Source: an uncultured bacterium
GTDB taxonomy: Bacteria; Hydrothermota; UBA3072
NCBI GenBank assembly: GCA_964525555.1
Contig: CAZGHN010000003.1
Span: 160-64,159 of the forward strand
Direction of reading: 5' to 3'
DNA: 64,000 nt
Part shown: positions 50,114 to 63,876 of the stretch, in pieces
Layout of the letters: each line of letters starts with the position of its first letter
How positions within the stretch are numbered: the stretch's first letter is position 1
Made by a program: the position numbers and the translations under genes
Notes under the pieces: model-generated
The model's database searches: none
What the model saw: the letters and a program-made list of their open reading frames with translations, nothing else
Told to the model about the DNA's origin: nothing

Positions 50114-50124
50114 CGATATAATAG

Positions 50125-50373: not shown

Positions 50374-51444
50374 ATGAATACATATTTTTTAAGTGAAGCA
50401 AAAATAAAAGATTTGATGTATGTCCTATCGGGATATGGCAAAATATTCGCCTCTCGAGAGGGGGAAGTTGCTTCAAACCGGAATTCTATTTCTCGAATAT
50501 TTATAAATGAGCTGGATGAGGATTCTATTTCCGGTTATCGTGTTCCCGGATTCAGGGCTTTCGATAATTTTAAGTCCTTCGTTCTGCCTGCAAGGTTGAA
50601 AGTTGCCGATTACCCGAGTGTGAATGGGGCTGATGTTAAGGAGAATAGAAATAAGAAAGTTCTTGTTGGCGTTAAGGCCTGTGATCTTGCGTCTTTTGCT
50701 ATAATTGACAAAGTCTTCCTCGAAGATGGGGATTTTGTAGATCCTTTCTACAAAAACAGGAGGCAGTCTTTAGTTCTGGTTTCTTCGGATTGCACTTATT
50801 CCCTCGATACTTGTTTTTGTAATCTTATGGGGTATTCCCCCTATCCGAAAGAAGGATTTGATATAAACTTGTCTGAGATTAAAGGCGGTTATGTAATCGA
50901 GAGTGGGAGTGGCGTGGGTAATAAGATTCTGAAAGATTTATCCCTTCCTGAAGCTAAAGAGAATCAAATTTCGGAAAGGAATAAATTGAGGAAAAAAGTA
51001 CTGGATGAATTGGAAAAGAAAAACGCTAGTTTTGTGAAGGCTTTTTCTAAGCTCGAAGTACTTGCTTCTAAGGTTTTTGATTCGGATTCTGGATGGGAGC
51101 TCGGCAGTACTTGTGTTTCTTGTGGCGCATGTACAAATGTTTGCCCGGTTTGTTATTGTTTTAGCCTTTTCGACAGGGAAGGAAATAAGAAAGAGCAATA
51201 TAAAAGATTCATGGTATGGGATTCCTGCCAGTTTAAAGGTTTTTCGCAGATGGCCGGCGGTATGAATCCGCGGTTTTCGCACATGAATCATTTTAAAAAC
51301 AGATTTTATCATAAATTTTTCCGTTTTTTTAAGATATATAAAACTTATAAATGTACCGGATGCGGACGGTGTATCGATAATTGTCTTGGGGATATAGATA
51401 TGAGGGAAGTTTTTTCCGGGGCTCTTTCTGGTAAGGGGAAATAG
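50374..51444 (+). CDS. AsrA / sulfhydrogenase-beta (HydB)-like iron-sulfur subunit
   Basis: VLVGVKACDLASFAIIDKVF block and two ferredoxin-type motifs, CVSCGACTNVCPVCYC and CTGCGRCIDNC; 356 aa. Confidence 0.6.
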   Translation: MNTYFLSEAKIKDLMYVLSGYGKIFASREGEVASNRNSISRIFINELDEDSISGYRVPGFRAFDNFKSFVLPARLKVADYPSVNGADVKENRNKKVLVGVKACDLASFAIIDKVFLEDGDFVDPFYKNRRQSLVLVSSDCTYSLDTCFCNLMGYSPYPKEGFDINLSEIKGGYVIESGSGVGNKILKDLSLPEAKENQISERNKLRKKVLDELEKKNASFVKAFSKLEVLASKVFDSDSGWELGSTCVSCGACTNVCPVCYCFSLFDREGNKKEQYKRFMVWDSCQFKGFSQMAGGMNPRFSHMNHFKNRFYHKFFRFFKIYKTYKCTGCGRCIDNCLGDIDMREVFSGALSGKGK

Positions 51445-52278
51445 ATGGAAAACATATACTATCCATTTCAGGCGACATTAAAGAGTGTAAAGGAAGAGAC
51501 TTCGACGATTAAGACTTATGGGCTTAAGTTGAATAAAAAATTAGCCTTTAAAGCCGGACAATTTATGCAGCTTACTGTGCCCGGCGTAGGTGAAGCTCCA
51601 TTTACACCTTCTTCGGTTCCCGGTGATGTCAAGGAGATGGATATTACAATCATGAAAACGGGGAGAGTTACGGACGTGCTGCATGAAAAGGTTAAGGTAG
51701 GGGATTCTCTCGCTCTTCGTGGTCCTTTTGGAAAGGGCTATCCTTTGGATAGGTTTTCCGGGAAAGAAATCTTGATTGTCGGTGGTGGTGTTGGCCTTGC
51801 TCCTCTTCGTTCGCTCATTTATGCTTTATTTGAAAGACTGGATAAAGTTAAGAAAATTCATATTTGTTATGGGGCAAAGAGTCCTTTGGATCAGTGTTTT
51901 AAAGATGAATATAAAGGATGGGAAGATAAGAAAAAAGTTTCCGTTAATTTGACTATAGATAAAGCTCATTCTGATTGGAAGGGAAATGTGGGTCTTGTAA
52001 CCTGTCTCTTGGAGAAGAACTACCTTAAAAAGATTGGTGTTGATATCGCAAACGCATATGCGGTTTCTTGTGGTCCGGAAGTTATGTTAAAATTTGTAAC
52101 GTTCAAGTTGCTGGATGTTGGTTTTAAACCGGAGCAAATTTATCTTTCTATGAACAGGCGTATGAGCTGTGGTGTTGGAAAATGTGCGAGGTGTAACATT
52201 GGGCCTTATTACCTCTGCAAGGATGGGCCCGATATGTGTTACGCAGATATAAAGGATTATCCGAATGTCTTCGGTTGA
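51445..52278 (+). CDS. AsrB / HydG / PyrK-like FAD-NAD(P)-binding subunit with C-terminal [2Fe-2S] motif
   Basis: GQFMQLTVPGVGEAPFTPSS, ILIVGGGVGLAPLRSL and MSCGVGKCARCNIGPYYLCKDGP. The start abuts the upstream stop. Confidence 0.7.
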   Translation: MENIYYPFQATLKSVKEETSTIKTYGLKLNKKLAFKAGQFMQLTVPGVGEAPFTPSSVPGDVKEMDITIMKTGRVTDVLHEKVKVGDSLALRGPFGKGYPLDRFSGKEILIVGGGVGLAPLRSLIYALFERLDKVKKIHICYGAKSPLDQCFKDEYKGWEDKKKVSVNLTIDKAHSDWKGNVGLVTCLLEKNYLKKIGVDIANAYAVSCGPEVMLKFVTFKLLDVGFKPEQIYLSMNRRMSCGVGKCARCNIGPYYLCKDGPDMCYADIKDYPNVFG

Positions 52279-53917
52279 GGAATATAGGACTAAGTGTACG
52301 TTCTGTAGTGTTCAGGACGATATTATCTTAAAGAGACAATCTTCTAAAGCGGCATTGTTCGGGAAGGATTCTCAATTTAAGCTTTATTATGACGAAAAAA
52401 GCAAAAGAGGCTTGTGTCCGAGGGGAAACTTCACTCTTGAAATCTTAAATTCTCCTTATCGTCTGAGACAGGCAGAACTTTTCGGTAAAAATTGCTCCGT
52501 AGATGAAGCTATAGAAGGTTGTGTCCCGGAACTAAAAAGAATTATCAAGAAAAAAAATAATATCGCGATTTTGATTAGCGGCAATCATACACTTGAAGAA
52601 GCATATCTTGCAAAGGCTCTTTCTGAAGAGTTAAATACGGAACTTCTGGGTCTTTTTCCGTTTGAGGATGAAGCGTTGCTATCCGTTAAAAATGGATTTT
52701 CTTTTAACGGTTTAGGTGAATCTGATCTTATTGTTGCCGTCGGAGATGTTTTTTCTCTTTCTCCTACTCTTGCGAAAAGTATACTCGATGCACGTAACAA
52801 GAGCAGGGGTAACCGTTTGATTTCTTTCGATATTTTAAAGGGTAGGGTCTCTCTTTTTGCGGAACATTTTAATGTTAATCCCGGTAATACGGCTTATTTT
52901 CTTTCATGTCTTCTTTCATATCTTGAAGGTAAAAATGTGAAATTAGATGAATCCTCCACAGGGATTTCTTCTGTGCAGATGAAGATTGTTGCAGATGCTT
53001 TAAAAGAATCTAAAAAAGGACAAATACTTTTTTCAAATATTTACGGACATTTTGAAAATCCTTATACAATTATAAGCAGACTTTCTGCTATTTCGGAAAT
53101 CACTGAAAATAAGTTTGCCGTTATTCCTGTGGGGCAAAATTCTCTTGGAGTTGGTAGAATCGTTGGAGGATTTAACAACAAGAATATTATTGATTCTCTC
53201 AAAAATAAAAAAGTAGAAGGTCTTATAGTGCTAGGAGGAGATCCGTTTGAATTTGTTCCGAATTTTGCGGATACGTTTGAATATTTGAATTTTGTTTTAT
53301 CTACGGTTTCCTTTAAAGGCTTGAACTCAACTGAGTGTATAATTCCTACGACTTTTTCTTTTGAGAAAAGCGGGTCTTTTGTTTCGTTGGAAGAAAAAAT
53401 CGTGAATTTGGGTGAACCTGTTTCTACGGTCGGAGATGCGATATCCGATGGGGATTTTATAAGTAAGCTAATTTTGAAGGTTACGAAAAACAAACCCAAA
53501 GCTAAGGTTTCCGGAGCAAAGGTGCTTCCTTTTAAGGAAACGAGTAGTAAAGAGCCTGTTTACTTGACTACAGGTAAGTTTCCCTATATTCTAGTTGGTA
53601 TTGGGATGCCTTTTCATCATGGTAGGGGAGAGGTTACCAGAAAGGTAAAATGGAATGAGCAAAATAAAGAACCTTTTGTATTTATTAATCCGGAAAAGAT
53701 AAAAGAGCTTTCACTTGGTTCCGAAATAATAATTGAAACCACTAATGGCTCTTCAGTTTTTAAAATTGGAGAATGTAGTGATTTGCCTTTTGATATACCT
53801 GAAGATGTGATAGCTGTACCTGTACATTATCCGCAGAGTAGGAAATTATTCGCAGGCGGTTCTGATGCCGACGGTATTATGTCTTCGGGAGCAGTCAGAG
53901 CGAGGATAAAGAAATGA
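52265..53917 (+). CDS. molybdopterin-oxidoreductase (MopB/formate dehydrogenase alpha)-like subunit, apparently degenerate
   Basis: Hand alignment to the E. coli FdhH pattern. The N-terminal cluster motif is C11-x2-C14-x3-D18...C51 (Asp in place of the third Cys). The Sec/Cys-His active-site position reads FPFEDE. The MGD-domain block DLIVAVGDVFSLSP and the C-terminal beta-barrel domain are retained. 550 aa. Confidence 0.6.
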   Translation: MSSVEEYRTKCTFCSVQDDIILKRQSSKAALFGKDSQFKLYYDEKSKRGLCPRGNFTLEILNSPYRLRQAELFGKNCSVDEAIEGCVPELKRIIKKKNNIAILISGNHTLEEAYLAKALSEELNTELLGLFPFEDEALLSVKNGFSFNGLGESDLIVAVGDVFSLSPTLAKSILDARNKSRGNRLISFDILKGRVSLFAEHFNVNPGNTAYFLSCLLSYLEGKNVKLDESSTGISSVQMKIVADALKESKKGQILFSNIYGHFENPYTIISRLSAISEITENKFAVIPVGQNSLGVGRIVGGFNNKNIIDSLKNKKVEGLIVLGGDPFEFVPNFADTFEYLNFVLSTVSFKGLNSTECIIPTTFSFEKSGSFVSLEEKIVNLGEPVSTVGDAISDGDFISKLILKVTKNKPKAKVSGAKVLPFKETSSKEPVYLTTGKFPYILVGIGMPFHHGRGEVTRKVKWNEQNKEPFVFINPEKIKELSLGSEIIIETTNGSSVFKIGECSDLPFDIPEDVIAVPVHYPQSRKLFAGGSDADGIMSSGAVRARIKK

Positions 53918-54402
53918 AAGGAAAAGCTGAAAAGAGAATTATACTTGATGTAGATAGGTGTATTTCCTGTCATGCGTGTGATATTGCCTGTTACGAGAGT
54001 CATTCGGAAAAATTCTGTCTTTCCCGTTCGAATTTTGATATTTCGGTCGACTTGCCTCTACACTGTAAACATTGTACGGATGCTTCATGTGTGGCGGTTT
54101 GTCCTGTGGAGGCATTAGAAAAGCGAAAGGACGGGTTGGTTTATCATAATAACTTTAGATGTATAGGATGTCTTTCCTGTACTATTGCATGTCCTTTTGG
54201 CGTTATCACGGCAAAGAGAATCAGGCATATTATTTCTAAGTGCGATCTTTGTTATGATATGTTGGAAGAAGGAAAAGATCCGAGATGTGTTCAGAGTTGT
54301 ACAAGTGGAGCTCTCTCATTTGAAGAAATAACTTACGAAGAAGAGAGCGAGAAAAACCGGGTGGATGGACGAGTTAAAGCGAAACCCTGGAGAAGATTAT
54401 GA
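53914..54402 (+). CDS. HycB-like polyferredoxin (multiple [4Fe-4S] motifs)
   Basis: CISCHACDIAC, CKHCTDASCVAVCP, CIGCLSCTIACP and CDLC...C..C motifs. Confidence 0.75.
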   Translation: MKGKAEKRIILDVDRCISCHACDIACYESHSEKFCLSRSNFDISVDLPLHCKHCTDASCVAVCPVEALEKRKDGLVYHNNFRCIGCLSCTIACPFGVITAKRIRHIISKCDLCYDMLEEGKDPRCVQSCTSGALSFEEITYEEESEKNRVDGRVKAKPWRRL

Positions 54403-55304
54403 AGTTGTTTATTTATTATTTTGTTTTTCCGGGTTTCATATTCTCTTCCGTGATTGGTCTTTTGACGGTCTGGCTCGATAGGAAAGTTTCTGCAAGAGTT
54501 CAGTGGAGACAGGGTCCTCCGTGGTATCAAGGTTTTGCAGATATTGGGAAATTACTTTATAAAGAAGTTATAATTCCCCAGGAGGCTTTCGGGTCAGGTT
54601 TTATTGCGGCTCCTCTTATTGGGCTTGCTTCCGTTACTCTTGCCGTTACGATTCTTTGTGTTTCTTTCTTTGGTATGAGTGAAGGTTTCGTAGGAGATAT
54701 AATCGTCGTGTGGTACCTGTTTGCTATACCTGCTATAGCTCTTGTTTATATAGGTTCGACTTCCGGTAATCCTTTGAGTTCAGTAGGTGTTGCAAGAGAG
54801 ATAAAACTTCTTCTGTCCTATGATCTTCCCATGATTATCGTTATTGTTATGGTCGCTACTAAAGCTGGTGGGTTTTCCATCCAGTCTATTGTGCAGTGGC
54901 AGAGAGCTAATGGGTCTAATATATCAAATTGGTATGGTATTACCGCATTTGTGGTTGCGATATTCTGTATACAGGCAAAACTTGGAAGAGTTCCGTTTGA
55001 TTTGGCGGAAGCGGAAACAGAGCTTGGTTCAGGGATTTTAATGGAACTTTCCGGCGGAGTCCTTGCTGCTTATGAATTAAGTAAAGCCATAATGCTTTTT
55101 GGATTACCTTTATTTTTGACTATACTTTTCTGGGGAAAAGGAATTATTGGCGGAGTTTTAATTTATTTGCTGATTGTTGTGTTGCTTATATTGATTAAAA
55201 ATACTAATCCCAGGGTAAGAATTGATCATGCAATGAAGTATTTCTGGGGTTGGATGAGCGGAGCTGCGATTCTGGCAGGAATCCTTGCTCATTTTGGAGT
55301 TTAG
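54399..55304 (+). CDS. NuoH/HycD/MbhM-like membrane subunit
   Basis: 301 aa, about 8 TM. Contains WLDRKVSARVQWRQGP, which matches the NuoH-type motif. Confidence 0.75.
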   Translation: MKLFIYYFVFPGFIFSSVIGLLTVWLDRKVSARVQWRQGPPWYQGFADIGKLLYKEVIIPQEAFGSGFIAAPLIGLASVTLAVTILCVSFFGMSEGFVGDIIVVWYLFAIPAIALVYIGSTSGNPLSSVGVAREIKLLLSYDLPMIIVIVMVATKAGGFSIQSIVQWQRANGSNISNWYGITAFVVAIFCIQAKLGRVPFDLAEAETELGSGILMELSGGVLAAYELSKAIMLFGLPLFLTILFWGKGIIGGVLIYLLIVVLLILIKNTNPRVRIDHAMKYFWGWMSGAAILAGILAHFGV

Positions 55305-55736
55305 ATGGATATTTTAAAGAAATCTTTTAAGAAATCTATATGGGTTTTTCACCTGTCTACTGCAGCGTGTAATAACTGTGATATTGAGGTTCTGGAGCTT
55401 CTGACTCCAAAGTATGATGTCGAGAGATTCGGGATAAAATTGATTGGGAGTCCGAGGCATGCGGATGCTCTGCTTGTTTGCGGTTCCGTAAATGCCCATG
55501 CGAAACCGAGGCTTCTTGAAGTTTACCGCCAAACGCCCAAGCCCTGCCTCGTTGTTGCTTTCGGCTCCTGTGGTTGCTCTTCAGGTATATTCAGAGATAG
55601 TTATTCGATCGTCGGACCGGTTGATAAGGTTTTAAGAGAGGAAGATCCTAATGCTTTAATAGTTTATGTTCCCGGATGTCCTCCTAAGCCTGAAGCAATG
55701 ATAGAAGCAATCGTTATGGGGTTGGGGGTTGTTTGA
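55305..55736 (+). CDS. group 4 [NiFe] hydrogenase small subunit (NuoB/HycG-like)
   Basis: Proximal-cluster cysteines CNNC..GSCGCS..PGCPPKPE. Confidence 0.85.
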   Translation: MDILKKSFKKSIWVFHLSTAACNNCDIEVLELLTPKYDVERFGIKLIGSPRHADALLVCGSVNAHAKPRLLEVYRQTPKPCLVVAFGSCGCSSGIFRDSYSIVGPVDKVLREEDPNALIVYVPGCPPKPEAMIEAIVMGLGVV

Positions 55737-56218
55737 TGAGTAAGGAAATTATGAAAGATTTGAGAGAAAATTTAAAAGGAAAGATAATGGATATTGTCCA
55801 ACCCAGAGACAACAGGATATATTTGAGAGTGGACTCTAAGAAGATTCCTGAGGTTATCGAGTATTTGTTTTTTAAATATAAATGTAAATTATGCACTGCC
55901 AGTGGTATAGACATGCGGGAAGGAATAGAAATAATTTATCATCTGGCAAGAGAAGATAAGAATATGTTAATAAATGTGAAGACTCTTATTCCTTATCCTA
56001 AATTGGAAATAGAGTCTATAGGTAAAAAGATACTGGCATTTAGATGGATTGAAAGGGAGTTAAACGAGATGCTTGGAATTACTTTTGTAGGTCACCCTGA
56101 TATGAGAAGGCTTCTTCTTGCCGATTCTTTTCCGAAGGGTAAGTATCCTTTAAGAAAGAATTTTAAACATTTAGATGTAAATGATGAAGATTATGATTAT
56201 GAGAGGTCAGGATTATGA
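55733..56218 (+). CDS. NuoC/HycE-N-like subunit
   Basis: WIERELNEMLGITFVGHPDMRRLLL block. Confidence 0.8.
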   Translation: MMSKEIMKDLRENLKGKIMDIVQPRDNRIYLRVDSKKIPEVIEYLFFKYKCKLCTASGIDMREGIEIIYHLAREDKNMLINVKTLIPYPKLEIESIGKKILAFRWIERELNEMLGITFVGHPDMRRLLLADSFPKGKYPLRKNFKHLDVNDEDYDYERSGL

Positions 56219-57429
56219 AGCAGACAATAATTCCTCTTGGTCCTTATCATCCGCTTCTTGAAGAGCCTGAACACTTTAAGCTCTATGTAGAGGGTGAGAG
56301 AGTGGTGGATCTTGATGTCGAAATAGGTTACAATCATAGAGGTGTGGAGAAATTATCCGAGGGAAAGACATGGGACCAGGTTGCGTATCTTGTGGAGCGA
56401 ATTTGCGGTATTTGTTCTACCTCACATCCGATGGCTTATTGCCTGGCTGTTGAAGATTTGGTTGGATGTGAAGTTCCGAAGAGAGCTCAGTTAATTAGAG
56501 TTGTTGTTTGCGAATTAGAAAGACTGCATTCTCATCTTTTATGGGTTGGGCTTGCTGGGCATTTCATCGGATATAACACAGTCTGGATGTGGGCATGGAA
56601 ATACAGGGAGACGATTTTAGAGATATGTGAAAAACTCACTGGTAATAGAAATCACTATGCTATGTTTAAGCCCGGTGGAGTTAGAAGAGATTTTAATAAA
56701 GAGCAAATAGATTATGCATTAGAGCATATTGTCGATGTAGAAAAACCCACCAAGATGCTTACTGATGCAATTCTTGATGATCCCGTAATACACAAGAGAC
56801 TTAAAGGGATAGGAGTATTGACAAAAAAAGACGCTATCCTTTATTCTGCGCTTGGACCTACATCTCGTGGGTCAGGAGTACCCTGGGATGTACGCAATGA
56901 TGAACCTCTTGATGGGTTTAAAGACCTTAAGTGGAATGTTATTGTTCAAAAGAATGGAGATGTTTTCAGTAAGGGTGTGGTACGCCTTCTTGAATGTTTT
57001 GAATCGATTTCCTTAATAAAGCAGGCTCTTTTAAAGCTGCCCAAAGGCGGAGCTATTGATGCGGATATAAAGGAAGTTCCGCCCGGAGAGGGATGCGGAC
57101 GATATGAAGCTCCGAGAGGAGAAGTCTTCCATTATGTGAGGAGCGACGGTTCCAATATGCCTTATCGGCATAAAATCAGAGCTCCGACGTTTAATAATCT
57201 TCCGACTTTTAAAGCCTCATGTAAGGGAGAAACTATTGCCGATGTCGCTTTAATTACAGCTTCTATCGATCCATGCTATTGCTGTACCGAGAGAGTCTCT
57301 GTTGTCGATAAAAATAACAATAATAAGATACTCAGAGAGAAAGATTTGTTAAAATTAAGCGTAGAAAAGACTAAGCGTATTATGAAGAGACTGGGTAAAG
57401 TACCGCCTCTCTATAGAATGGAGATATAA
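56215..57429 (+). CDS. group 4 [NiFe] hydrogenase large subunit (NuoD/HycE/MbhL-like)
   Basis: Both Ni-Fe ligand motifs are present: L1 RICGICSTSH (56401-56427) and L2 DPCYCCTER (57268-57294). 44 residues follow L2. Confidence 0.88.
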   Translation: MKQTIIPLGPYHPLLEEPEHFKLYVEGERVVDLDVEIGYNHRGVEKLSEGKTWDQVAYLVERICGICSTSHPMAYCLAVEDLVGCEVPKRAQLIRVVVCELERLHSHLLWVGLAGHFIGYNTVWMWAWKYRETILEICEKLTGNRNHYAMFKPGGVRRDFNKEQIDYALEHIVDVEKPTKMLTDAILDDPVIHKRLKGIGVLTKKDAILYSALGPTSRGSGVPWDVRNDEPLDGFKDLKWNVIVQKNGDVFSKGVVRLLECFESISLIKQALLKLPKGGAIDADIKEVPPGEGCGRYEAPRGEVFHYVRSDGSNMPYRHKIRAPTFNNLPTFKASCKGETIADVALITASIDPCYCCTERVSVVDKNNNNKILREKDLLKLSVEKTKRIMKRLGKVPPLYRMEI

Positions 57430-59294
57430 TGTTTGATAAGATATTATTGTACCCGATTATAATACCTTTCTTTGCCGGGCTTTTTACTCTGATTGTCCCT
57501 CGATTGAAGAAATTTAAGCAATTGATAACAATTGCCGTAACTCTGTACCTTCTAATTCTTTCGTATCATTTGTTTAATTTAACCGGTACCGTAGAGAGTT
57601 TATTATCCATTAGTTTCTTAAACTACCGGACAGATTTTCTGCTTAAAGTCGATCAGATAAGCGGCTTTATGCTTTTGTTTACTTTCCTGTTTGGCTTTTT
57701 GATATCTATATATCTTATTAGTTCCCGTAGTGAAGTTAAAACGGGAGATAATCAATTCTTAACCTATTTCCTCTGGACTCTTGGAGGTGTATCTGGTGTA
57801 TTCCTTTCTGCTAATTTATTATTCGTGCTTATTTTCTGGGAGATGGTTACAGCTATTTTCTTCCTTTATATTAATTTGGGAAAGGGTAAGGGTATTTCCG
57901 AGGCAGCTCGTAAAACTTATATTATACTTGGTTTTGCGGATGCTTTGTTCTTATTTGGTGTTACCTATATATGGGTTACTGTAGGTGTTCTTAATATTGA
58001 TTTGATTTCTATTTCTACTGCTTCCGGTGTACTTCCAAGAATTGTGTTTTTCTCTTTTGTCGTGGCCGCTGTTGCAAAAGCAGGGGCAATACCTTTCCAC
58101 ACATGGATTCCTGCGATTGCAGAAGAATCTCCTGCATCATTGATGGCTTTCTTACCGGCATCTCTTGATAAATTACTGGGTATTTATCTTTTGGCAGTAA
58201 CAATGTTAAAGTTATTTAATGTCGAACCGATTTTACAATTTATCGTTATGCTAATAGGAGCGCTTACTATTATCATAGCTGTACTTATGGCTCTTATACA
58301 ACATAATCTTAAAAAACTACTTTCTTTTCACGCAGTTAGTCAGGTCGGTTATATGGTTCTTGGTATCGGTACGGGTAATCCTATTGGAGTTTTAGGTGGA
58401 TTGTTCCATATGTTAAACCATGCTGTTTACAAGAGCGGACTCTTTCTATGTGCAGGTGCCATTGAAAAAGAAACAGGGACAACAGAATTGGAAGAATTGG
58501 GAGGCTTGTACAGAAAAATGCCGTTTTTGATGATTTCCAATATAATACTCGCTATGGCTATCTCCGGTGTACCGCCTTTAAATGGTTTTACTTCCAAATG
58601 GATGGTTTACCAGGGTGTTCTACAAGCAGGACAACCCGTGTTTCTTGTTCTGGCAATTTTCGGAAGTGCTTTGACGCTTGCTTCTTTCCTGAAAGTGATT
58701 TATTCGGTTTACTTCGGAGGTGCCTCGGAAGCTTATGATAAGGCGCGGAAACCTTCTTTATTAATGACAGCTCCTATAGCTGTTTTGGCTACTCTGTGTC
58801 TTTTCTTTGGCATATTCCCTGCATTTACAGTGAGCCTCTTCCTGGTGCCTATGGAATTTAACATATTTGCAAGTTTATCGATATCTAAATTTCTTTCCGG
58901 TAACTTGAGCTTTGTCAATACGTTGTGGGATCCGGGTCAGGCTACTTTAGCTTTGGTAATCGGTCTTTTTATTGGTCTTATAGTGTATGTAATAGGTAAG
59001 GTATTTGATTACAGGGAACAGCCTGTCTTCACCTGCGGTGAGAGGTTAGATGTTGAGAAAAGAAGATTTCCCGGGACAGGGCTCTATCTTACCATACTTG
59101 AGTTGCCGTTTATTGGGACATATCTTAAAGATAGAGATAAGGGTACTTATGATATTTATAATATAGTTAAGGTTTCTGGTTGGAAAGCAATAGTTGAAAA
59201 GTTGAAAAATATGCATGACGGTATTCTATCTACTTATTTATCATGGTGTATTGTTGGTTTAATGATAATCATGTTTGTTCTTATGAACAGGTAG
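57429..59294 (+). CDS. NuoL/MrpA/HycC-like antiporter-type membrane subunit
   Basis: 621 aa, many TM segments. Contains AGAIPFHTWIP, SQVGYMVLGIG and HMLNHAVYKSGLFLCAG blocks. Confidence 0.8.
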   Translation: MFDKILLYPIIIPFFAGLFTLIVPRLKKFKQLITIAVTLYLLILSYHLFNLTGTVESLLSISFLNYRTDFLLKVDQISGFMLLFTFLFGFLISIYLISSRSEVKTGDNQFLTYFLWTLGGVSGVFLSANLLFVLIFWEMVTAIFFLYINLGKGKGISEAARKTYIILGFADALFLFGVTYIWVTVGVLNIDLISISTASGVLPRIVFFSFVVAAVAKAGAIPFHTWIPAIAEESPASLMAFLPASLDKLLGIYLLAVTMLKLFNVEPILQFIVMLIGALTIIIAVLMALIQHNLKKLLSFHAVSQVGYMVLGIGTGNPIGVLGGLFHMLNHAVYKSGLFLCAGAIEKETGTTELEELGGLYRKMPFLMISNIILAMAISGVPPLNGFTSKWMVYQGVLQAGQPVFLVLAIFGSALTLASFLKVIYSVYFGGASEAYDKARKPSLLMTAPIAVLATLCLFFGIFPAFTVSLFLVPMEFNIFASLSISKFLSGNLSFVNTLWDPGQATLALVIGLFIGLIVYVIGKVFDYREQPVFTCGERLDVEKRRFPGTGLYLTILELPFIGTYLKDRDKGTYDIYNIVKVSGWKAIVEKLKNMHDGILSTYLSWCIVGLMIIMFVLMNR

Positions 59295-59302
59295 GGGATG
59301 TT

Positions 59303-59866
59303 ATGAATGTAATATTGTTGTTGCACTCACTTCTTGTGTTTATGATAATAGGGGCTTTTATAACTGTAGAGATAAAAAATATGCTTTCGGCGGTAATCTC
59401 TGTGGGTGCTGTTGGATTCGCACTTTCAATGACCTTCCTTTTCCTTGGGGCACCTGATATTGCTATCACTCAGGTTATAGTTGAAATTTTGTCATTGATA
59501 CTTTTGATAAGGGCTACTGTTAATGTAGATAATGTTGCTATCGAGGAGAAGGGAGAATCTGTTTTTCATAATAGGACAGCCTTGATTTTTGTAGGTATTA
59601 TACTTGTTTTTGCGTGGATTGCATTTCATTCGCTTCCCCCGTTTGGAGAACCTTTAATGAGAGTTTCTAAATTCTATCTGGATAATGGTCTGGCGAAGGT
59701 AGGGGCAACAAATTTTGTGACTTCTGTTATTCTAGATTTCAGAGCTTACGATACTTTTGGTGAGGCAATGGTTCTGTTTGTTTCGATAAGCGGTGCTTTC
59801 GCGATCTTACGGAGATGGAAAAGAGAACAAAATAAAGATTTCTTAAGGATAGATCGGGAGCATTAA
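59303..59866 (+). CDS. MrpA C-terminal/MrpB-like (MbhD/E-like) membrane subunit
   Basis: APDIAITQVIVEIL and NFVTSVILDFRAYDTFGEAMVLF blocks. Start moved to ATG 59303, after the upstream stop (the track starts at 59243). Confidence 0.65.
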   Translation: MNVILLLHSLLVFMIIGAFITVEIKNMLSAVISVGAVGFALSMTFLFLGAPDIAITQVIVEILSLILLIRATVNVDNVAIEEKGESVFHNRTALIFVGIILVFAWIAFHSLPPFGEPLMRVSKFYLDNGLAKVGATNFVTSVILDFRAYDTFGEAMVLFVSISGAFAILRRWKREQNKDFLRIDREH

Positions 59867-59868
59867 TT

Positions 59869-60342
59869 ATGAAGAGAAAAAAACAATCCGGAATGACTTT
59901 TATAGTAAAAACGATAACTAATTTGATAGTTGGATTTATGTTAGTTTTTGGTGCATATGTAGTTCTGTACGGACATATAACGCCGGGTGGTGGTTTTCCT
60001 GGTGGGGTAATGATTGCTCTTACCTATATTTTGATAACTCTTGCTTATGGAAGGAAGGTTGTGGAAAGTATAGTTTCGGGAGTTGCGGGTTCAATTATGG
60101 ATGATTTAGGCGCAATTGCTATCATAATATTAGGTTTTATCGGATTATATATAGGAGGAACATTTCTTTATAATTTTTTGCCTAAGGGTAATCCTTTTGA
60201 TTTGTTTTCAGCCGGTTATATCGTACTGTATAACCTTGCAATAATGTTGAAAGTAGGCATGAGTCTTTATATCGTTTTTCTTGCTCTTGCTATACTACAA
60301 AGAGTCGTGGTAACCAGGAATGAAAAGGAGGAGGGAAAATAA
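59869..60342 (+). CDS. mrpB: MrpB/MnhB-like subunit
   Basis: YGHITPGGGFPGGVMIAL motif. Confidence 0.7.
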   Translation: MKRKKQSGMTFIVKTITNLIVGFMLVFGAYVVLYGHITPGGGFPGGVMIALTYILITLAYGRKVVESIVSGVAGSIMDDLGAIAIIILGFIGLYIGGTFLYNFLPKGNPFDLFSAGYIVLYNLAIMLKVGMSLYIVFLALAILQRVVVTRNEKEEGK

Positions 60343-60692
60343 TGACTCTATACTTTCTGAATTTTGTGCTTCTGATTATAGGTTTATACGCGCTCGTGGT
60401 TAAGAGACATATTGTTAAAAAGATTCTTGGGGTTGCGATAATGGAATATGCTGTGAATCTATTTTTAATACTTCTTGGTTTTAAGAAATCCGGAATTGCA
60501 CCTATTCTTACCGAAGATATGGATTTAAGAACTTTTATTCATACAGCGGTAGATCCTCTCCCACAAGCGCTAGTTCTGACGTCTATAGTCATTGGTCTCG
60601 GAACTCTTGCTCTTATGGTAGCAATGGCTATCAGACTTTATGAGAGATATGGAACTTTTGATATGGATGAAATAAACAGGCTTAGAGGTTGA
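60342..60692 (+). CDS. mrpC: MrpC/NuoK-like subunit
   Basis: 116 aa, 3 TM. LGVAIMEYAVNLFLI..VLTSIVIGLGTLAL pattern. Confidence 0.7.
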   Translation: MTLYFLNFVLLIIGLYALVVKRHIVKKILGVAIMEYAVNLFLILLGFKKSGIAPILTEDMDLRTFIHTAVDPLPQALVLTSIVIGLGTLALMVAMAIRLYERYGTFDMDEINRLRG

Positions 60693-62179
60693 AGATGGGT
60701 TCTTTATTACCATTATTTACTGCGATTCCTGTATTTAGTGCGATTTTGATGCTGATTGTTGGCAAATTTGATAAGAAGAACTTCCCCAGAATTTGGTCGA
60801 TTCTTACATCTCTTTCTCTACTTTATATATTGTCAGCTGTATGGGGAAAGGGAATAATTATTCATGAAATGGGAGGGTGGAGACCGCCTTTTGGTATAGT
60901 GCTTGTTAAAGATAATCTTTCGCAGTTTATGCTTTTAATCGTTAATGTAGTAGCCTTCCTTACAATTATTTATTCATACGTTTATATGAAGAAATACGAA
61001 GATTACTTAAGATTTTTCACTCTGTTTTTGTTTATGCTTGCAGGTATGAATGGAGTTGTACTGACCGGAGATTTGTTTAATCTGTTTGTATTTCTTGAGA
61101 TTGCCTCTATTGCATCGTATGCACTGGTTGGTTATGGGGTAGATGCTGAAGAGCTGGAGGCTTCATTTAAATATTTGATATTGGGAGCTCTTGCTTCAAC
61201 CTTTATTCTGTTTGGTATAGGAATGATTTATTCTCTTACAGGTTCTGTTAATATGGCCGATGTGGCAAGATTTCTTATAGATAATAATTTAGCTAGCAAT
61301 AATGCGCTTTTAATGGCGACTGGTTTATTTATAGTCGGTTTTGGGCTTAAGGCTGGGCTTGTTCCTTTCCATGCCTGGTTGCCTGATGCTCATTCTTCGG
61401 CTCCTGCTCCTATTTCCGTAATGCTGTCAGGCGTTTTAATTAAAGTTCTTGGGATTTATGCTATTATAAGAGTTTTCTATAATGTGATCGGAGTTACATC
61501 TGTTATTTCCAATATATTTATAACGATGGGAACTATATCTATGCTTGTTGGTGCTTTTATGGGTTTTGGACAGGATGATATGAAAAGAATGTTTGCTTTT
61601 TCTTCTGTAAGCCAGATGGGTTATATTGCTGTTGGAATTGGTATTGGTACTCCTCTAGCTCTTATCGGTGCTTTATTCCATCTCCTTAACCATGCCGGAT
61701 TTAAGTCTCTACTCTTTCTTTCCTCAGGGGCGATAGAATCTTCTACAGGAACGAGAAATTTATCTGAACTTGGCGGACTTGGTAAAAAGATGCCGGTTAC
61801 TTCGGGGGCGTCAGTTGTTGGCTCTCTTTCTATTGCTGGTGTACCTCCGTTTAATGGGTTCTGGAGTAAGTTGATTATAATCCTTGCTGCTTTTTCAGCC
61901 GGATACATCTGGCTTGGAGCAATTCTCGTTTTAACTGCTTTTTTAACTTTGGCTTATTACTTACGTTTTCAAAAGAATGTAATTTTTGGAGAACCGAGTT
62001 CAAGTATGAAAGATGTCAGGGAAGCCCCGTTGTTAATGCTGTTACCCATACTTGTTTTTGCTGCTTTCTGTCTTATTGCCGGGATTTTTAATGGCTGGAT
62101 TGTAAGTAATATTGTTATTCCGGCTCAAAGCATAATACTTGATCAATTAGGTTATATTTCATCTGTGATGGGTATATAG
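60689..62179 (+). CDS. mrpD: MrpD/NuoM/N-like antiporter subunit
   Basis: GLVPFHAWLPDAHSSAP, SQMGYIAVGIG and HLLNHAGFKSLLFLSSG blocks. Confidence 0.8.
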   Translation: MKMGSLLPLFTAIPVFSAILMLIVGKFDKKNFPRIWSILTSLSLLYILSAVWGKGIIIHEMGGWRPPFGIVLVKDNLSQFMLLIVNVVAFLTIIYSYVYMKKYEDYLRFFTLFLFMLAGMNGVVLTGDLFNLFVFLEIASIASYALVGYGVDAEELEASFKYLILGALASTFILFGIGMIYSLTGSVNMADVARFLIDNNLASNNALLMATGLFIVGFGLKAGLVPFHAWLPDAHSSAPAPISVMLSGVLIKVLGIYAIIRVFYNVIGVTSVISNIFITMGTISMLVGAFMGFGQDDMKRMFAFSSVSQMGYIAVGIGIGTPLALIGALFHLLNHAGFKSLLFLSSGAIESSTGTRNLSELGGLGKKMPVTSGASVVGSLSIAGVPPFNGFWSKLIIILAAFSAGYIWLGAILVLTAFLTLAYYLRFQKNVIFGEPSSSMKDVREAPLLMLLPILVFAAFCLIAGIFNGWIVSNIVIPAQSIILDQLGYISSVMGI

Positions 62180-62188
62180 GGAGATTTT

Positions 62189-62677
62189 ATGAAGAAGAGA
62201 TTGGCTGAATTTATTATAACTTTTTCGATGTGGATTCTTTTAACATGGTCTTTGAAATTACAGGATATTATGGTTGGAGCTGTTGTGGCTTTAATTGTAA
62301 CGATTATTACACGAAAGCTTTTTCCTAGAGATGTTGTTAGACTACTACATCCGCGACGTTTTTTCTTTGCCATTCTTTATATGCCTTATTTGGTTTATTA
62401 TATTCTACTTGCTAATCTGGATGTAGCGTACAGAGTATTGAATCCGTATCTTCCGATAAATCCGGGAATTGTTAGGGTGAGAACGAGTCTCACATCAGAT
62501 TTTGCTAAGACTATTCTTGCTAATTCTATTACGCTAACTCCTGGAACTCTAACTGTGGAAGTTGATGGTGATGATTTTTACGTTCACTGGATAAATGTTT
62601 CGAGTGATAATCCGGAAGTTCAGAGGGAGATAATTTTAGGTAGATTTGAGAGAATGCTAAGGAGGATATTCGAATAA
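62189..62677 (+). CDS. mrpE: MrpE/MnhE-like subunit
   Basis: LANLDVAYRVLNP..ILANSITLTPGTLTVEVD block. Confidence 0.75.
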   Translation: MKKRLAEFIITFSMWILLTWSLKLQDIMVGAVVALIVTIITRKLFPRDVVRLLHPRRFFFAILYMPYLVYYILLANLDVAYRVLNPYLPINPGIVRVRTSLTSDFAKTILANSITLTPGTLTVEVDGDDFYVHWINVSSDNPEVQREIILGRFERMLRRIFE

Positions 62678-62934
62678 TGTTTACATTTTTATTTGCCTCT
62701 TTAATTATAGCATCTTTTATGTGTCTGTACAGGGTTATGGTGGGTCCGACACCGCCTGATCGGATGGTAGCAATAGATATACTTGGAATTATTGTTGTCG
62801 GCATGTGTGCTCTTTTCGCAGCGCAAAAAGGCAGAGATTTTTATCTCTATATAGCTATATCCTGGTCGATACTATCTTTCGTTGGTACTCTTGCACTTGT
62901 TAAGTTCCTGGAAGGTAGGGGGTTCGATGAATAA
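62677..62934 (+). CDS. mrpF: MrpF/MnhF-like subunit
   Basis: YRVMVGPTPPDRMVAIDILG motif. Confidence 0.75.
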   Translation: MFTFLFASLIIASFMCLYRVMVGPTPPDRMVAIDILGIIVVGMCALFAAQKGRDFYLYIAISWSILSFVGTLALVKFLEGRGFDE

Positions 62935-63259
62935 TAATTTTGCTATAGCTTTTGTTTTTATAGGGGTAACTTTTGATCTGCTTGGATGTCTGGGTTTAAT
63001 CAGGCTCCCGGATATTTATAATAGATTGCAAGCTGCTACAAAATCCGTTACACTTGGTACCTGTGCCATACTATTTGGTGTCTTTCTTGAGTTTGGTTTT
63101 TCTTCCGGTGGTATTAAGGCATTGATTTGTATAATGTTTGTGATGTTTACTTCTCCTACGGCGGCTCATGCGCTGGCAAGAGGTTCTCATATAAGAGGAT
63201 TTAAATTATGGGAAGGAAGTAAAGTAGATAAATTAAAAGAAGACAGGGAGAAGAAATAA
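62927..63259 (+). CDS. mrpG: MrpG/MnhG-like subunit
   Basis: GCLGLIRLPDIYNRLQAATKSVTLG motif. Start set at ATG 62927 (the track starts at 62882). Confidence 0.75.
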   Translation: MNNNFAIAFVFIGVTFDLLGCLGLIRLPDIYNRLQAATKSVTLGTCAILFGVFLEFGFSSGGIKALICIMFVMFTSPTAAHALARGSHIRGFKLWEGSKVDKLKEDREKK

Positions 63260-63261
63260 TA

Positions 63262-63876
63262 ATGAAAAAACCTAAGATAAGAGAACTAGGTGAGGCGATA
63301 AAGGCTGTAGTTAAAGGACCGTATACAACAAAATTTCCTTTTGAAGCGCCTGATATTATTCCTGAATTCCGCGGGTTCCCTGAGTATCAGGATGCTGATT
63401 GCGTAAGATGTGGGGCGTGTGCAGAAGTTTGTCCTGCGCGTGCTATTGAAGTGGAAGAGTACGAAAAAGACGGAAAAAAATTCAGGAAAGTTCGTTTTCT
63501 TTATGATGTTTGTCTCCTCTGCGGTCAGTGCGGAGCTCTTTGTACAACCGGTAAAGGTATAGTATATACTAATAATTACGCTAAGAATACCCTGGATAGA
63601 AGCGAGGTGATTCAGGAGGTAGAGGATGAATTGGTTGAATGCGAGAAGTGCGGAGAGATTATATCTACAAAACTCCATCTTGACTGGATTGCCGACAGAC
63701 TCGGAGAAAAGGCATATGCTAACCCAACTATTATTCTGGCGAAACAGGTTAAAATGAAAATTTCAGATGAAGAAGGAAGAGCTAAGGACTCTTGCGAATT
63801 TACCAGAGAGGATTGGTATAAAGTTCTTTGTCCGGATTGTAGGCGAGCTGCCTGGATGAAGGAAAACTTCCAGTAA
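63262..63876 (+). CDS. NuoI/HycF/MbhN-like 2x[4Fe-4S] subunit with a C-terminal extension carrying two CxxC pairs
   Basis: CVRCGACAEVCP and CLLCGQCGALC. The extra motifs are CEKCGE....CPDCRR. Confidence 0.75.
   Translation: MKKPKIRELGEAIKAVVKGPYTTKFPFEAPDIIPEFRGFPEYQDADCVRCGACAEVCPARAIEVEEYEKDGKKFRKVRFLYDVCLLCGQCGALCTTGKGIVYTNNYAKNTLDRSEVIQEVEDELVECEKCGEIISTKLHLDWIADRLGEKAYANPTIILAKQVKMKISDEEGRAKDSCEFTREDWYKVLCPDCRRAAWMKENFQ

Follow-up and report, generated by a model that had tools for sequence, protein, structure and literature searches.

A widespread operon of uncultured bacteria joining sulfhydrogenase-like subunits, a group 4 [NiFe] hydrogenase and an Mrp module downstream of a predicted Rex-type operator

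The architecture described here was called "enigmatic" in a Saganbacteria genome paper of 2019 (PMC6349859), and a paper of 2026 described a subclade of Group 4b that combines SHI beta/gamma homologues with Cys-less Fdh (PMC13582414). The operon architecture is not new and is known from genomes alone. Since it already stands in genome papers, its novelty is lower than a sequence-only reading of this DNA had implied; the claim of that reading that the subunit combination is uncharacterised holds for biochemistry and does not hold for genome descriptions.

Gene content and conservation of the operon

The window analysed (the whole stretch of DNA, 64,000 nucleotides) contains 17 ORFs at 50374 to 63876, all on the plus strand, which abut or overlap along this region and confirm the cluster as real at the coordinates first reported. 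They are listed below as g1 to g17, with the junction to the following gene counted from the ORF list (gap positive, overlap negative).

g1, 50374 to 51444, plus strand, 356 aa, SHI-beta / HydB / AsrA-like Fe-S subunit; junction 0 nt
g2, 51445 to 52278, plus strand, 277 aa, SHI-gamma / HydG / AsrB-like flavoprotein, predicted to bind FAD, NAD(P) and [2Fe-2S]; junction -14 nt
g3, 52265 to 53917, plus strand, 550 aa, FdhH-fold MopB-like protein without formate dehydrogenase catalytic residues; junction -4 nt
g4, 53914 to 54402, plus strand, 162 aa with 16 Cys, HycB/CooF-like polyferredoxin; junction -4 nt
g5, 54399 to 55304, plus strand, NuoH/HycD/MbhM-like membrane subunit (Pfam NADHdh, 6e-56); junction 0 nt
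g6, 55305 to 55736, plus strand, NuoB-like hydrogenase small subunit (Oxidored_q6, 8e-25); junction -4 nt
g7, 55733 to 56218, plus strand, NuoC-like subunit (Complex1_30kDa, 7e-24); junction -4 nt
g8, 56215 to 57429, plus strand, 404 aa, [NiFe] hydrogenase large subunit (Complex1_49kDa and NiFeSe_Hases); junction -1 nt
g9, 57429 to 59294, plus strand, 621 aa, antiporter-like (MrpA N-terminal part / MbsH' / HycC-like; Proton_antipo_M); junction +8 nt, given a g10 start at the internal ATG 59303 (longest ORF, 59243)
g10, 59303 to 59866, plus strand, MbhD+MbhE-like, MrpA C-terminal part (MbhD, 4e-16; MbhE, 3e-11); junction +2 nt
g11, 59869 to 60342, plus strand, MrpB/MnhB-like (MnhB, 1.5e-22); junction -1 nt
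g12, 60342 to 60692, plus strand, MrpC/NuoK-like (Oxidored_q2, 1.5e-25); junction -4 nt
g13, 60689 to 62179, plus strand, 496 aa, MrpD-like antiporter subunit (Proton_antipo_M, 6e-72, and Proton_antipo_N); junction +9 nt
g14, 62189 to 62677, plus strand, MrpE (MNHE, 3e-44); junction -1 nt
g15, 62677 to 62934, plus strand, MrpF (MrpF_PhaF, 2e-17); junction -8 nt, given a g16 start at ATG 62927 (longest ORF, TTG 62882)
g16, 62927 to 63259, plus strand, MrpG (PhaG_MnhG_YufB, 1e-24); junction +2 nt
g17, 63262 to 63876, plus strand, 204 aa, NuoI/HycF/MbsN-like 2x[4Fe-4S] subunit (Fer4_7 and related families)
Hairpin, 63878 to 63906, plus strand, perfect 12-bp stem GATTCATTTGCC-ATAAA-GGCAAATGAATC, read directly from the sequence just past the stop codon

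These counts agree with the earlier description of overlaps of 1 to 14 nt or gaps of at most 9 nt, and overlaps of 4 nt and 1 nt, indicating translational coupling, span the g3/g4 junction and onward. The hairpin is a possible transcript end of the operon; no T run follows it, and a terminator scan requiring a T run made no call there. The cluster of a WOR-3-type relative (L006) likewise ends with g17.

The first two genes were labelled AsrAB/HydBG-like in the sequence-only reading, which is borne out by their closest PDB matches, P. furiosus sulfhydrogenase I beta for g1 (9nez_B, 1e-29; Pfam Fer4_22, 3e-27) and gamma for g2 (9nez_C, 2e-46; FAD_binding_6, NAD_binding_1 and DHODB_Fe-S_bind). 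Invariant across phyla are 15 Cys of g1 and the FAD, NAD(P) and [2Fe-2S] motifs of g2 (APFTPSS, GGGVGLAP, CGP and C242/C247/C250/C258). The best match of g4 was HycB (7z0s_B, 2e-19; Fer4_11, 3e-20), as its HycB-like label had it, and 13 of its Cys are invariant.

The large subunit g8 was proposed to be a true hydrogenase, and it holds both Ni-Fe ligand motifs, ERICGICSTSHP (RICGICSTSH) and DPCYCCTER, with closest matches to MbhL (6cfw_L, 6e-91) and HycE (7z0s_E, 1e-84). A C-terminal extension of 44 residues comes after DPCYCCTER, which fits the HycI-type protease and hyp genes flanking the clusters of relatives. The small subunit g6 carries the Cys of CNNC...GSCGC...GCPP, and g17, with an extra C-terminal CxxC...CxxC, matched 6u8y_N (6e-14), HycF (7z0s_F, 1.5e-13) and TYKY/NuoI. 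The PDB matches of g9 were MrpD (7qru_D), MbhH (6cfw_H), 6u8y_X and HycC (7z0s_C). By Pfam, g9 to g16 together encode all seven Mrp subunit types (MrpA-G), so that the Mrp module is full as claimed.

The gene order was found again in five independent contigs from at least four phyla, and gene order was conserved at 69 of the 73 genome loci reaching far enough to judge; the recurrence is therefore far beyond chance. The order g1-g2-(g3)-g4-g5-g6-g7-g8-g9 and onward is conserved in WOR-3, Zixibacteria, Latescibacterota, Omnitrophota, Planctomycetota and Krumholzibacteria, and also in Gemmatimonadota, Elusimicrobia, Bacillota, Caldisericota and others. All 80 of the 80 closest loci belong to MAGs, and the operon design is common among uncultured bacteria. 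Neither a characterised subgroup of identical content, nor a separate operon, nor failed ligand motifs, the findings that the sequence-only reading had named as counting against it, were encountered.

Promoter-like site and predicted Rex-type operator

Two features lie upstream of g1.

Promoter-like site, 50268 to 50295, plus strand, TTGACA-16-TAACAT, sigma-70-like, 10/12 matching
Predicted Rex-type operator, 50307 to 50324, plus strand, TAGTGATTTAAATCACAA, one mismatch to TTGTGA-N6-TCACAA

The promoter-like site is the best plus-strand sigma-70-like match within 49700-64000 and is directly followed by the operator, which is the only Rex-type site with at most one mismatch in the 64-kb window (0.15 expected). 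Six related upstream regions of WOR-3 type share the block GGGGTTGACAAA at the promoter-like site without change, the operator is likewise invariant in WOR-3 relatives, and no block of these regions beyond promoter and operator is invariant. Of the 80 related operons, 18 have a Rex-type site with at most one mismatch upstream, where 0.18 would be expected, and at 11 of 73 loci a rex gene is encoded no more than 2 kb upstream of the operon; at many of the 80 related operons a Rex box was not found. Two-component/sigma-54 regulators adjoin some related operons instead of a Rex box, for example at locus L004.

The Rex link is the new element of this analysis, and it would tie the operon to the NADH/NAD+ balance. 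The earlier idea that the hydrogenase is NAD(P)H-linked and ion-coupled thereby gains independent support from the occurrence of Rex operators and rex genes among related operons. Rex senses NADH, while SHI uses NADPH. Since Rex regulons of anaerobes also contain ferredoxin-dependent hydrogenases, the Rex link is to be read as redox-balance control and not as evidence for NADH as the direct substrate.

Proposed function and competing readings

We see about an even chance that Rex represses this operon and that its product is a membrane-bound group 4 [NiFe] hydrogenase coupled through Mrp, whose peripheral arm follows the plan of formate hydrogenlyase (FHL) but has a different electron partner. 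The most likely function is that of a hydrogenase that is reversible, linked to NAD(P)H and coupled to an ion gradient, and that sheds reducing power. The gene content, the motifs, the conserved synteny, the missing Fdh catalytic residues and the Rex association are observed, whereas we infer how the subunits dock, which route electrons take, which nucleotide serves, and in which direction and at what stoichiometry coupling runs. NAD(P)H would bind the flavoprotein g2, and electrons would pass from FAD to the [2Fe-2S] cluster of g2, onward to g1 and the HycB-like polyferredoxin g4 with their [4Fe-4S] clusters, and then through the NuoI-like g17 and the NuoB-like g6 to the Ni-Fe site of g8; the path would also run backwards. 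The membrane arm (g5 and g9 to g16) would link the redox chemistry to transport of H+/Na+. Against this reading, g4 or g17 may hold a ferredoxin docking site.

Rex would leave its operator at high NADH/NAD+, so the enzyme would be made when reducing equivalents pile up, and its likely role would thus be to discard electrons from NAD(P)H in the form of H2. With standard potentials of -320 mV for NAD(P)H and -414 mV for H2, this reaction is uphill, and the membrane arm probably pays for H2 evolution out of the ion-motive force. Ions would instead be pumped if H2 were kept very low, or if the enzyme ran from H2 to NAD(P)+. Since thermodynamics makes an NAD(P)H-driven H2 evolver that pumps implausible at all but very low H2, the coupling direction is a guess.

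The same subunits could instead form a confurcating or bifurcating enzyme, with an Fe-S network branching to three ends, namely the Ni-Fe site, the flavin of g2 and one more, which would be either g3 or ferredoxin docking on g4/g17. NAD(P)H to H2 would then be pulled by co-oxidation of reduced ferredoxin or some other low-potential donor, and the reverse could also run. For a related Group 4b cluster (Cys-less Fdh, SHI beta/gamma homologues), an AlphaFold 3 model has a three-way branched chain, and the authors of the model propose bifurcation/confurcation (PMC13582414). Confurcation would resolve the thermodynamic problem of NAD(P)H to H2, and up to four clusters on g4 are beyond the needs of a linear wire. 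However, 45 of the 69 related clusters have no g3 gene, and a third terminus on g3 is therefore not essential. Furthermore, g2 is an SHI-gamma/PyrK-type single-FAD protein, SHI itself is not known to be bifurcating, and the membrane ion-coupling arm already offers a means of covering the energy difference or of drawing on it. We consider confurcation unlikely.

Even less probable is an ordinary ferredoxin-dependent Mbh-type hydrogenase (usually annotated as "Mbh, Group 4g/4d, Mrp-linked"), in which g1-g2 would be a side outlet acting as ferredoxin:NAD(P)+ oxidoreductase, or a separate soluble enzyme merely co-transcribed. The catalytic core is closest to MbhL, the reaction from ferredoxin to H2 plus ion pumping is energetically straightforward, and MAG papers annotate the Mrp-linked Group 4g of Omnitrophota, Cloacimonadota and Auribacterota as ferredoxin-coupled Mbh, possibly for another gene cluster. 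Against this stands the linkage of g1-g2-(g3)-g4 to the core with overlapping stop and start codons in those 69 of 73 judgeable loci, only 4 of the 73 having g1-g2 in other context. By Pfam and PDB matches the operon also has HycB-like and SHI-beta/gamma-like subunits, which are not known from the characterised Mbh (6CFW).

The MopB-like protein g3

The sole weak Pfam case among the 17 genes was g3 (Molybdopterin family, 5e-7; Molydop_binding under its cut-off), the others being clear and agreeing with their first labels. Its AF2 model (pLDDT 80) gave Fdh, Nap and NuoG as top Foldseek matches, FdhH and the FHL complex chain 7z0t_A among them. In an hhalign comparison with FdhH (probability 95%), U140-H141 fall within a deletion and R333 is missing; SeCys/Cys140, His141 and Arg333 are missing from g3 and 24/24 homologues examined. 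One Fe-S motif is kept (C11-x2-C14-x3-D18...C51), in which the third Cys is replaced by Asp in the WOR-3-type lineage of this operon. The degenerate MopB subunit of the sequence-only reading is thus a catalytically stripped MopB, while "NuoG-like" was imprecise: g3 belongs with the stand-alone MopB proteins of FdhH type, has a single N-terminal Fe-S motif and lacks all N-terminal ferredoxin domains of NuoG. Most related clusters are without the gene, so g3 is dispensable; this and the missing catalytic residues led to its rejection as a formate dehydrogenase. It would be an FdhH relic keeping one Fe-S cluster, most likely as a structural or side-branch electron-transfer subunit.

There is a slim chance that g3 is an active enzyme with Mo/W or another cofactor for some other substrate, within a hydrogenlyase-type or respiratory complex in which NAD(P)H is secondary. 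The MopB fold appears retained, with high model confidence in domains I-IV, the pocket-lining motifs GQNS.G, EK.GS and HHG.G..TR are kept, and an Asp near the former Mo-ligand site is invariant in 24/24 homologues; in NarG-type enzymes the Mo ligand is Asp. However, the best sequence match of g3 is the cofactor-less MopB domain of NfnABC (9bov_A), the catalytic loop is deleted along with the loss of R333, the cofactor-capping domain IV is gone in two Latescibacterota copies, the gene is absent from most clusters, and molybdopterin synthesis or transporter genes were not found near g3.

A formate hydrogenlyase resembling either Fdh-Mfh-Mnh of Thermococcus or FHL of E. coli, oxidizing formate at g3 to yield H2 and ion export, is barely credible: the peripheral arm has the FHL layout (MopB, HycB-like, HycF-like, small and large subunits) and the top Foldseek matches include FdhH and the FHL complex chain, but this reading is already contradicted by the g3 sequence, g3 is optional, and a formate transporter was not found in the cluster.

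The conservation of g3, including its invariant Asp, exceeds the needs of a pure spacer, which counts against the relic reading.

Gene content of the operon and its closest solved proteins

The hydrogenase genes were found as 17 consecutive ORFs (g1-g17) on the plus strand at 50374-63876, and each junction in the ORF list was an overlap of 1-14 nt or a gap of 0-9 nt when internal ATG starts were used for g10 (59303) and g16 (62927). The range of overlaps and gaps agreed with that of the sequence-only reading, and its 17-gene plus-strand operon was confirmed by the ORF list and by the Pfam domain of each product, showing a tight predicted operon structure. Terminator and promoter matches within the operon were no more numerous than in shuffled sequence, thus lending no support to a separate transcript of 50374-53917. 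The downstream end of the cluster was judged from relatives such as L006, a WOR-3-type locus ending with g17. No rex, hycI or hypA-F was found in the 64-kb window by tblastn.

Pfam domains of the 17 products and, after the semicolon, best matches among solved proteins
g1: Fer4_22; P. furiosus sulfhydrogenase I (SHI) beta, 9nez_B, 1e-29
g2: FAD_binding_6, NAD_binding_1 and DHODB_Fe-S_bind; SHI gamma, 9nez_C, 2e-46
g3: Molybdopterin / Molydop_binding, weak
g4: Fer4_11; E. coli HycB, 7z0s_B, 2e-19
g5: NADHdh (NuoH)
g6: Oxidored_q6 (NuoB)
g7: Complex1_30kDa (NuoC)
g8: Complex1_49kDa and NiFeSe_Hases; MbhL, 6cfw_L, 6e-91, and HycE, 7z0s_E, 1e-84
g9: Proton_antipo_M; MrpD, MbhH, 6u8y_X and HycC
g10: MbhD and MbhE
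g11: MnhB
g12: Oxidored_q2
g13: Proton_antipo_M/N
g14: MNHE
g15: MrpF
g16: MrpG
g17: two-cluster ferredoxin; MbsN, HycF and NuoI/TYKY

The large subunit g8 contains ERICGICSTSHP and DPCYCCTER, followed by a C-terminal tail of 44 residues. Both Ni-Fe ligand motifs named in the sequence-only reading were found in it, L1 (RxCGxCxxxH) as RICGICSTSH and L2 (DPCxxCxxR/H) as DPCYCCTER, alongside the Pfam domains NiFeSe_Hases and Complex1_49kDa. Taken together, these motifs and the tail identify g8 as a genuine [NiFe] large subunit, of a kind that a HycI-type protease matures. Its scores against MbhL (309 bits) and HycE (288 bits) were nearly equal. The NuoB-like small subunit g6, in which the proximal-cluster Cys were read in the sequence, and the NuoC-, NuoH- and NuoI-like partners (g7, g5 and g17) were all present.

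For the flavoprotein pair, g1 and g2 showed the homology expected of SHI beta and gamma, with FAD and NAD(P) motifs and [2Fe-2S] Cys in the gamma-like g2 and multiple [4Fe-4S] motifs in the beta-like g1. The FAD motif APFTPSS, the NAD(P) motif GGGVGLAP, CGP and the four [2Fe-2S] Cys of g2 were unchanged in six phylogenetically distant copies, and fifteen cysteines of g1 and thirteen of g4 were invariant. Homologues of MrpA-G were all encoded in the operon, with MrpA split between g9 and g10, and B to G corresponding to g11, g12, g13, g14, g15 and g16, respectively. The peripheral arm has the layout of formate hydrogenlyase (FHL), namely MopB, HycB, HycF, small subunit and large subunit; an SHI-type NAD(P)H flavoprotein pair stands before this arm, and an Mbh/Mrp-type membrane arm with two antiporter-like subunits behind it. 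At the sequence level, these predicted products showed an intact Ni-Fe site, a complete Fe-S carrier set, an FAD/NAD(P)-binding subunit and a full Mrp-type membrane arm.

Three other assignments were rejected. An Mbx/MBS/Ehr reading was ruled out by the intact Ni-Fe ligands, a group 3b SHI holoenzyme by the only hydrogenase subunits of the operon being of group 4 / NuoB-NuoD type with no delta/alpha, and an AsrABC sulfite reductase by the lack of AsrC and of any Pfam sulfite/nitrite reductase domain in the 17 gene products.

The MopB-like subunit

An AlphaFold2 model of g3 built from 19 homologues was confident except for residues 1-55 (mean pLDDT 80, pTM 0.83). Searched with Foldseek, it matched formate dehydrogenases at the top (7vw6, 8rqz, FdhH 1fdi and the FHL chain 7z0t_A), then Nap and then NuoG, whereas by sequence the top solved match was the cofactor-less MopB domain of NfnABC (9bov_A, 1e-5). 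Profile alignment with E. coli FdhH by hhalign gave 95% probability, and in this alignment, for which E. coli numbering was used, SeCys140-His141 fell in a 6-residue deletion of g3 and Arg333 was gone. A MAFFT alignment of the homologues from the census revealed the same loss of SeCys/Cys140-His141 and Arg333 in 24 of 24. Since the catalytic residues are lost across the family, g3 is not a formate dehydrogenase, and the formate hydrogenlyase / formate dehydrogenase reading was ruled out.

The Asp beside the lost Mo-ligand position was invariant in all 24 homologues, usually within an E-D or D-D pair, as follows.

about 52667-52669, plus strand: D135 of g3 (homologues within loci L001-L065)

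The Fe-S motif of the window protein consists of C11, C14, D18 and C51, with Asp at the third Cys position. This CxxCxxxD...C form of the N-terminal motif was found in the WOR-3/Zixibacteria-type copies, and the canonical CxxCxxxC...C was kept in homologues from Krumholzibacteria, Latescibacterota, Calditrichaceae and Phycisphaerae. Two copies from Latescibacterota, of 476 and 483 aa, have no domain IV at all. With 196 cluster representatives at E <= 1e-3 among 1.84 billion, the family is small and isolated. The g3 protein looks like a relic retained for structure or for its one cluster; a role of another kind would be compatible with its good conservation and invariant Asp.

A NuoG-like MopB scaffold had been proposed from the sequence. 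The degenerate MopB part held up, while the N-terminal 2Fe-2S/4Fe-4S ferredoxin domains of NuoG were absent and a single Fe-S motif was present. As NuoG itself g3 was rejected, for it corresponds to the MopB part only, and the NuoG chains (including 8e9g_G and 4hea_3) ranked below Fdh and Nap structurally.

Distribution of the gene cluster and its predicted Rex control

The nearest named g8 homologues came from candidate division WOR-3 (79-81% identity), followed by Latescibacterota, Omnitrophica, Zixibacteria and Anaerolineae at 60-66%. Five contigs reached through g8 homologues had the same gene order. Four of them (an NCBI MAG, a Latescibacterota MAG, a Zixibacteria contig and a WOR-3-type JGI contig) carried all 17 genes, and the Omnitrophica contig carried 16, with only g3 missing; HycI, HypA and HypB, or HypFCDEA adjoined several of the five. 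For a wider census, 185,579 GTDB species genomes were scanned with an alignment of g1 homologues, giving 383 relatives, from which the best 80 loci were kept, all 80 from MAGs and none from an isolate. The 17 window proteins were then mapped by tblastn onto the 80 loci and the five contigs.

Arrangement in the 80 census loci and five contigs
g1-g2-g4-g5-g6-g7-g8-... order, g3 absent: 45 loci
same order, g3 present: 24 loci
locus ends before the junction could be judged: 12 loci
g1-g2 in another context: 4 loci

The 17-gene synteny, which the sequence-only reading had proposed to look for in MAG collections, thus recurs, with g3 often missing. By these counts the SHI-beta/gamma-like pair is nearly always linked to this hydrogenase, whose cluster may or may not include g3. 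The census taxa included Omnitrophota, Planctomycetota/Phycisphaerae, Elusimicrobia/Endomicrobiales, Krumholzibacteria, Gemmatimonadota, Calditrichaceae, Anaerolineales, Bacillota/Clostridia, Caldisericota, Acetothermia, Auribacterota, Chlamydiota, Spirochaetota, Actinomycetota and one Hadarchaeota MAG. The Hadarchaeota archaeon locus (L041) has homologues of g1-g2-g4-g7-g8-g17 in another arrangement, with NuoH-like and MrpD-like genes on the opposite strand and HycI upstream; unless this is a binning artefact, the module may not be limited to Bacteria. In four other loci (L020 and L029 from Calditrichaceae MAGs, L015 and L060) a second, more divergent g1(-g2)-like copy lies directly upstream of the main g1-g2, which suggests a tandem duplication of the flavoprotein module.

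Upstream of g1 stands the best plus-strand sigma-70-like site of the whole 14-kb region, followed twelve bases further 3' by a candidate operator of the repressor Rex.

50268-50295, plus strand: sigma-70-like site, TTGACA-16-TAACAT
50307-50324: candidate Rex operator TAGTGATTTAAATCACAA

The candidate operator has one mismatch to the Rex consensus TTGTGA-N6-TCACAA, and a site of this quality was unique in the window (0.15 expected). In the otherwise variable upstream regions of six WOR-3-type relatives, only GGGGTTGACAAA and the palindrome were invariant. Upstream sequence was long enough in 80 loci; a perfect Rex operator stood no more than 300 nt before g1 in 10 of these and a one-mismatch operator in 8. 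The background in the same loci was 0.0023 per 330 nt, from which 0.18 sites would be expected. In 11 of 73 related loci, a rex homologue was found no more than 2 kb upstream. Rex acts as a repressor when NADH/NAD+ is low, and the operon, given the predicted operator, would therefore be on when reducing equivalents accumulate. Predicted Rex control would tie the operon to the NADH/NAD+ balance and offers a concrete, testable regulatory handle.

The 643-bp intergenic region before the operon also bears three short direct-repeat sets, the paired copies 8 nt apart (49972-50231), in a part which was not conserved in the aligned WOR-3 relatives, where only the promoter and operator blocks were invariant.

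50171-50202: repeat TTTCCCATTTCCCAATTTCCCCATTTTTCAAT
near 50094-50112: repeat GTGTCTTTGTGTCTCTGTG
near 50217-50231: repeat CTTCGTGTCTTCGTG

A 561-aa ORF divergent from the operon (48045-49730, minus strand) had no Pfam match at E <= 1e-4.

Known systems and the proposed electron path

This architecture is not new to the literature. [quoted passage not shown] 2019, main text and Supplementary Note 5; PMC6349859). Compared by description rather than by sequence, the RX5A region and the present one both have relatives in these two lineages, but RX5A belongs to WOR-1 whereas the present MAG is of WOR-3 type, and the residue loss, the optional MopB and the predicted Rex control are absent from that paper. 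A 2026 study in Front Microbiol reported the Mo-ligand Cys/Sec to be missing from about half of the Fdh subunits of a Group 4b subclade, and SHI-gamma and SHI-beta homologues to be present in the clusters concerned; it suggested bifurcation/confurcation involving NADP(H) (PMC13582414). Its FHL-like cluster, ligand-less Fdh and P. furiosus SHI gamma/beta homologues resemble the present case. It centres on Sec-containing variants in Chloroflexota, Desulfobacterota and others, with modelled sets of 11-12 proteins and MrpE/F/G unmentioned, while here the large subunit is of plain CxxC type and the Mrp set is full.

As to classification, the cluster type with Cys-less Fdh and SHI-beta/gamma has been assigned to Group 4b (PMC13582414). 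The label 'Mbh, Group 4g, ferredoxin-coupled' is given in MAG papers to Mrp-linked enzymes of Omnitrophota, Cloacimonadota and Auribacterota, although these may be encoded by another cluster, and HydDB defines group 4g as loosely clustered and of unknown function. The literature search found no biochemical or structural characterisation of this hydrogenase type. Hence the claim that the subunit combination was uncharacterised stood for biochemistry and structure and fell for the architecture, which was already in genome papers (PMC6349859, PMC13582414); the sequence-only reading as a whole was essentially right, and its observation real. The window is one more member of a widespread, biochemically uncharacterised clade. 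New in this analysis are the Rex link, the census showing that the MopB relic is optional and the family-wide residue evidence against a formate dehydrogenase.

Each characterised system shares part of this design. The P. furiosus membrane-bound hydrogenase MBH (PDB 6CFW, HydDB group 4d) provides the closest solved large subunit, MbhL (6e-91), and has a NuoB/C/D/H/I core and an Mrp-type membrane arm (MbhA-H, homologues of g10-g16); however, its donor is ferredoxin, it lacks HycB-like, SHI-beta/gamma-like and MopB subunits, and it has one antiporter-like subunit where two are found here (g9 and g13), as in MBS and Mrp. FHL (E. coli FHL-1, PDB 7Z0S; Thermococcus Fdh-Mfh-Mnh; HydDB 4a/4b) shares the arm order MopB, HycB, HycF, HycG, HycE, the matches of g4, g17 and g8 to HycB, HycF and HycE, the C-terminal extension of the large subunit and HycI proteases, which here adjoin relatives. 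Against FHL, g3 is without catalytic residues, an NAD(P)H flavoprotein module is added and NuoC and NuoD are separate proteins, and the full Mrp module is unlike E. coli FHL-1. The beta/gamma homologues of g1/g2 in SHI (PDB 9NEZ, group 3b) bear Fe-S clusters, FAD and an NADP(H) site, but SHI is soluble and its pair serves group 3b small/large subunits. A core of NuoB/C/D/H/I/K/L/M type, a flavoprotein input that oxidises nucleotides and a MopB relic without cofactor (cf. the NuoG C-terminal domain) are shared with complex I (NuoA-N), whereas here the g1/g2 input is not homologous to NuoE/F, g3 lacks the N-terminal Fe-S domains of NuoG, the Ni-Fe site is kept in place of the quinone pocket and MrpE/F/G are present.

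We propose that electrons from NAD(P)H would pass to the FAD and [2Fe-2S] of g2, to the clusters of g1 and through g4, g17 and g6 to the Ni-Fe site, the SHI-type module presumably being joined to the group 4 core through the HycB-like protein. The path would be reversible, with g5 and g9-g16 coupling it to ion movement. Going by textbook potentials, electron transfer from NAD(P)H to H2 is uphill at standard conditions. Most plausibly the membrane arm would spend ion-motive force for H2 release, which in a fermenter would allow NADH oxidation and more acetate and ATP; otherwise energy could be conserved with H2 as the donor to NAD(P)+, or at a very low H2 level.

Confurcation with ferredoxin is an alternative to this simple NAD(P)H-linked path and was proposed by the authors of an AlphaFold 3 model of a related cluster (PMC13582414), but the optional occurrence of g3 in related clusters speaks against g3 as an essential third terminus of such a reaction. 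Another alternative is an ordinary Mbh that depends on ferredoxin and has a side branch to NAD(P). A further, unlikely reading is an independently evolved complex-I-like machine, in which Fdh activity was lost from an FHL-type ancestor, the MopB shell was retained and an NAD(P)H flavoprotein other than NuoEF was recruited, in parallel to the presumed origin of the complex I N-module and the NuoG relic. Such a machine would either spend ion-motive force on moving NAD(P)H electrons uphill to protons or conserve energy when working from H2 to NAD(P)+, and the MopB subunit, whose Asp is invariant and whose Fe-S cluster would be Asp-ligated, might be a new third redox terminus.

If the proposed NAD(P)H-linked function is true, a direct exchange between NAD(P)H and H2 at the membrane, coupled to an ion gradient, would be open to many uncultured anaerobes, among them those of WOR-3, Omnitrophota, Zixibacteria, Latescibacterota, Planctomycetota and Krumholzibacteria. 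Since MAG-based metabolic models take the enzyme as a plain ferredoxin-dependent Mbh, this link is absent from them. The family would be a natural analogue of the step thought to have given complex I its nucleotide-oxidising module and dead MopB domain, and lineages with and without the relic in the census are a natural experiment on its role. The enzyme would reward biochemical work and is useful for considering how complex I arose, and is neither a surprise nor a categorically new system.

A V/A-type ATPase operon (32501-40985, plus strand) lies about 10 kb upstream of the hydrogenase operon and is likely a consumer or producer of the ion gradient handled by the Mrp arm.

33701-35635, plus strand: subunit I
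35645-36013, plus strand: 122-aa proteolipid
37226-39010, plus strand: A subunit
39003-40379, plus strand: B subunit
40380-40985, plus strand: D-like protein

Gene orientation and GC skew flip at about 16100-16800, where no dnaA was seen. Genes before about 16.1 kb are on the minus strand, the last being a glycine cleavage P-protein subunit (14675-16117), and after the flip almost all are on the plus strand, the first being a class A penicillin-binding protein (16785-18956). At gathering threshold, Rfam gave one match in the window, a single tRNA gene (8795-8869, minus strand). At 43706-47772 on the plus strand, a Tol-Pal / ExbBD-TonB-like envelope cluster encodes OmpA-family, TPR (YbgF/YfiO-like), MotA/ExbB/TolQ and ExbD/TolR proteins, a TonB_2 C-terminal domain protein and a PD40 beta-propeller (TolB-like) protein.
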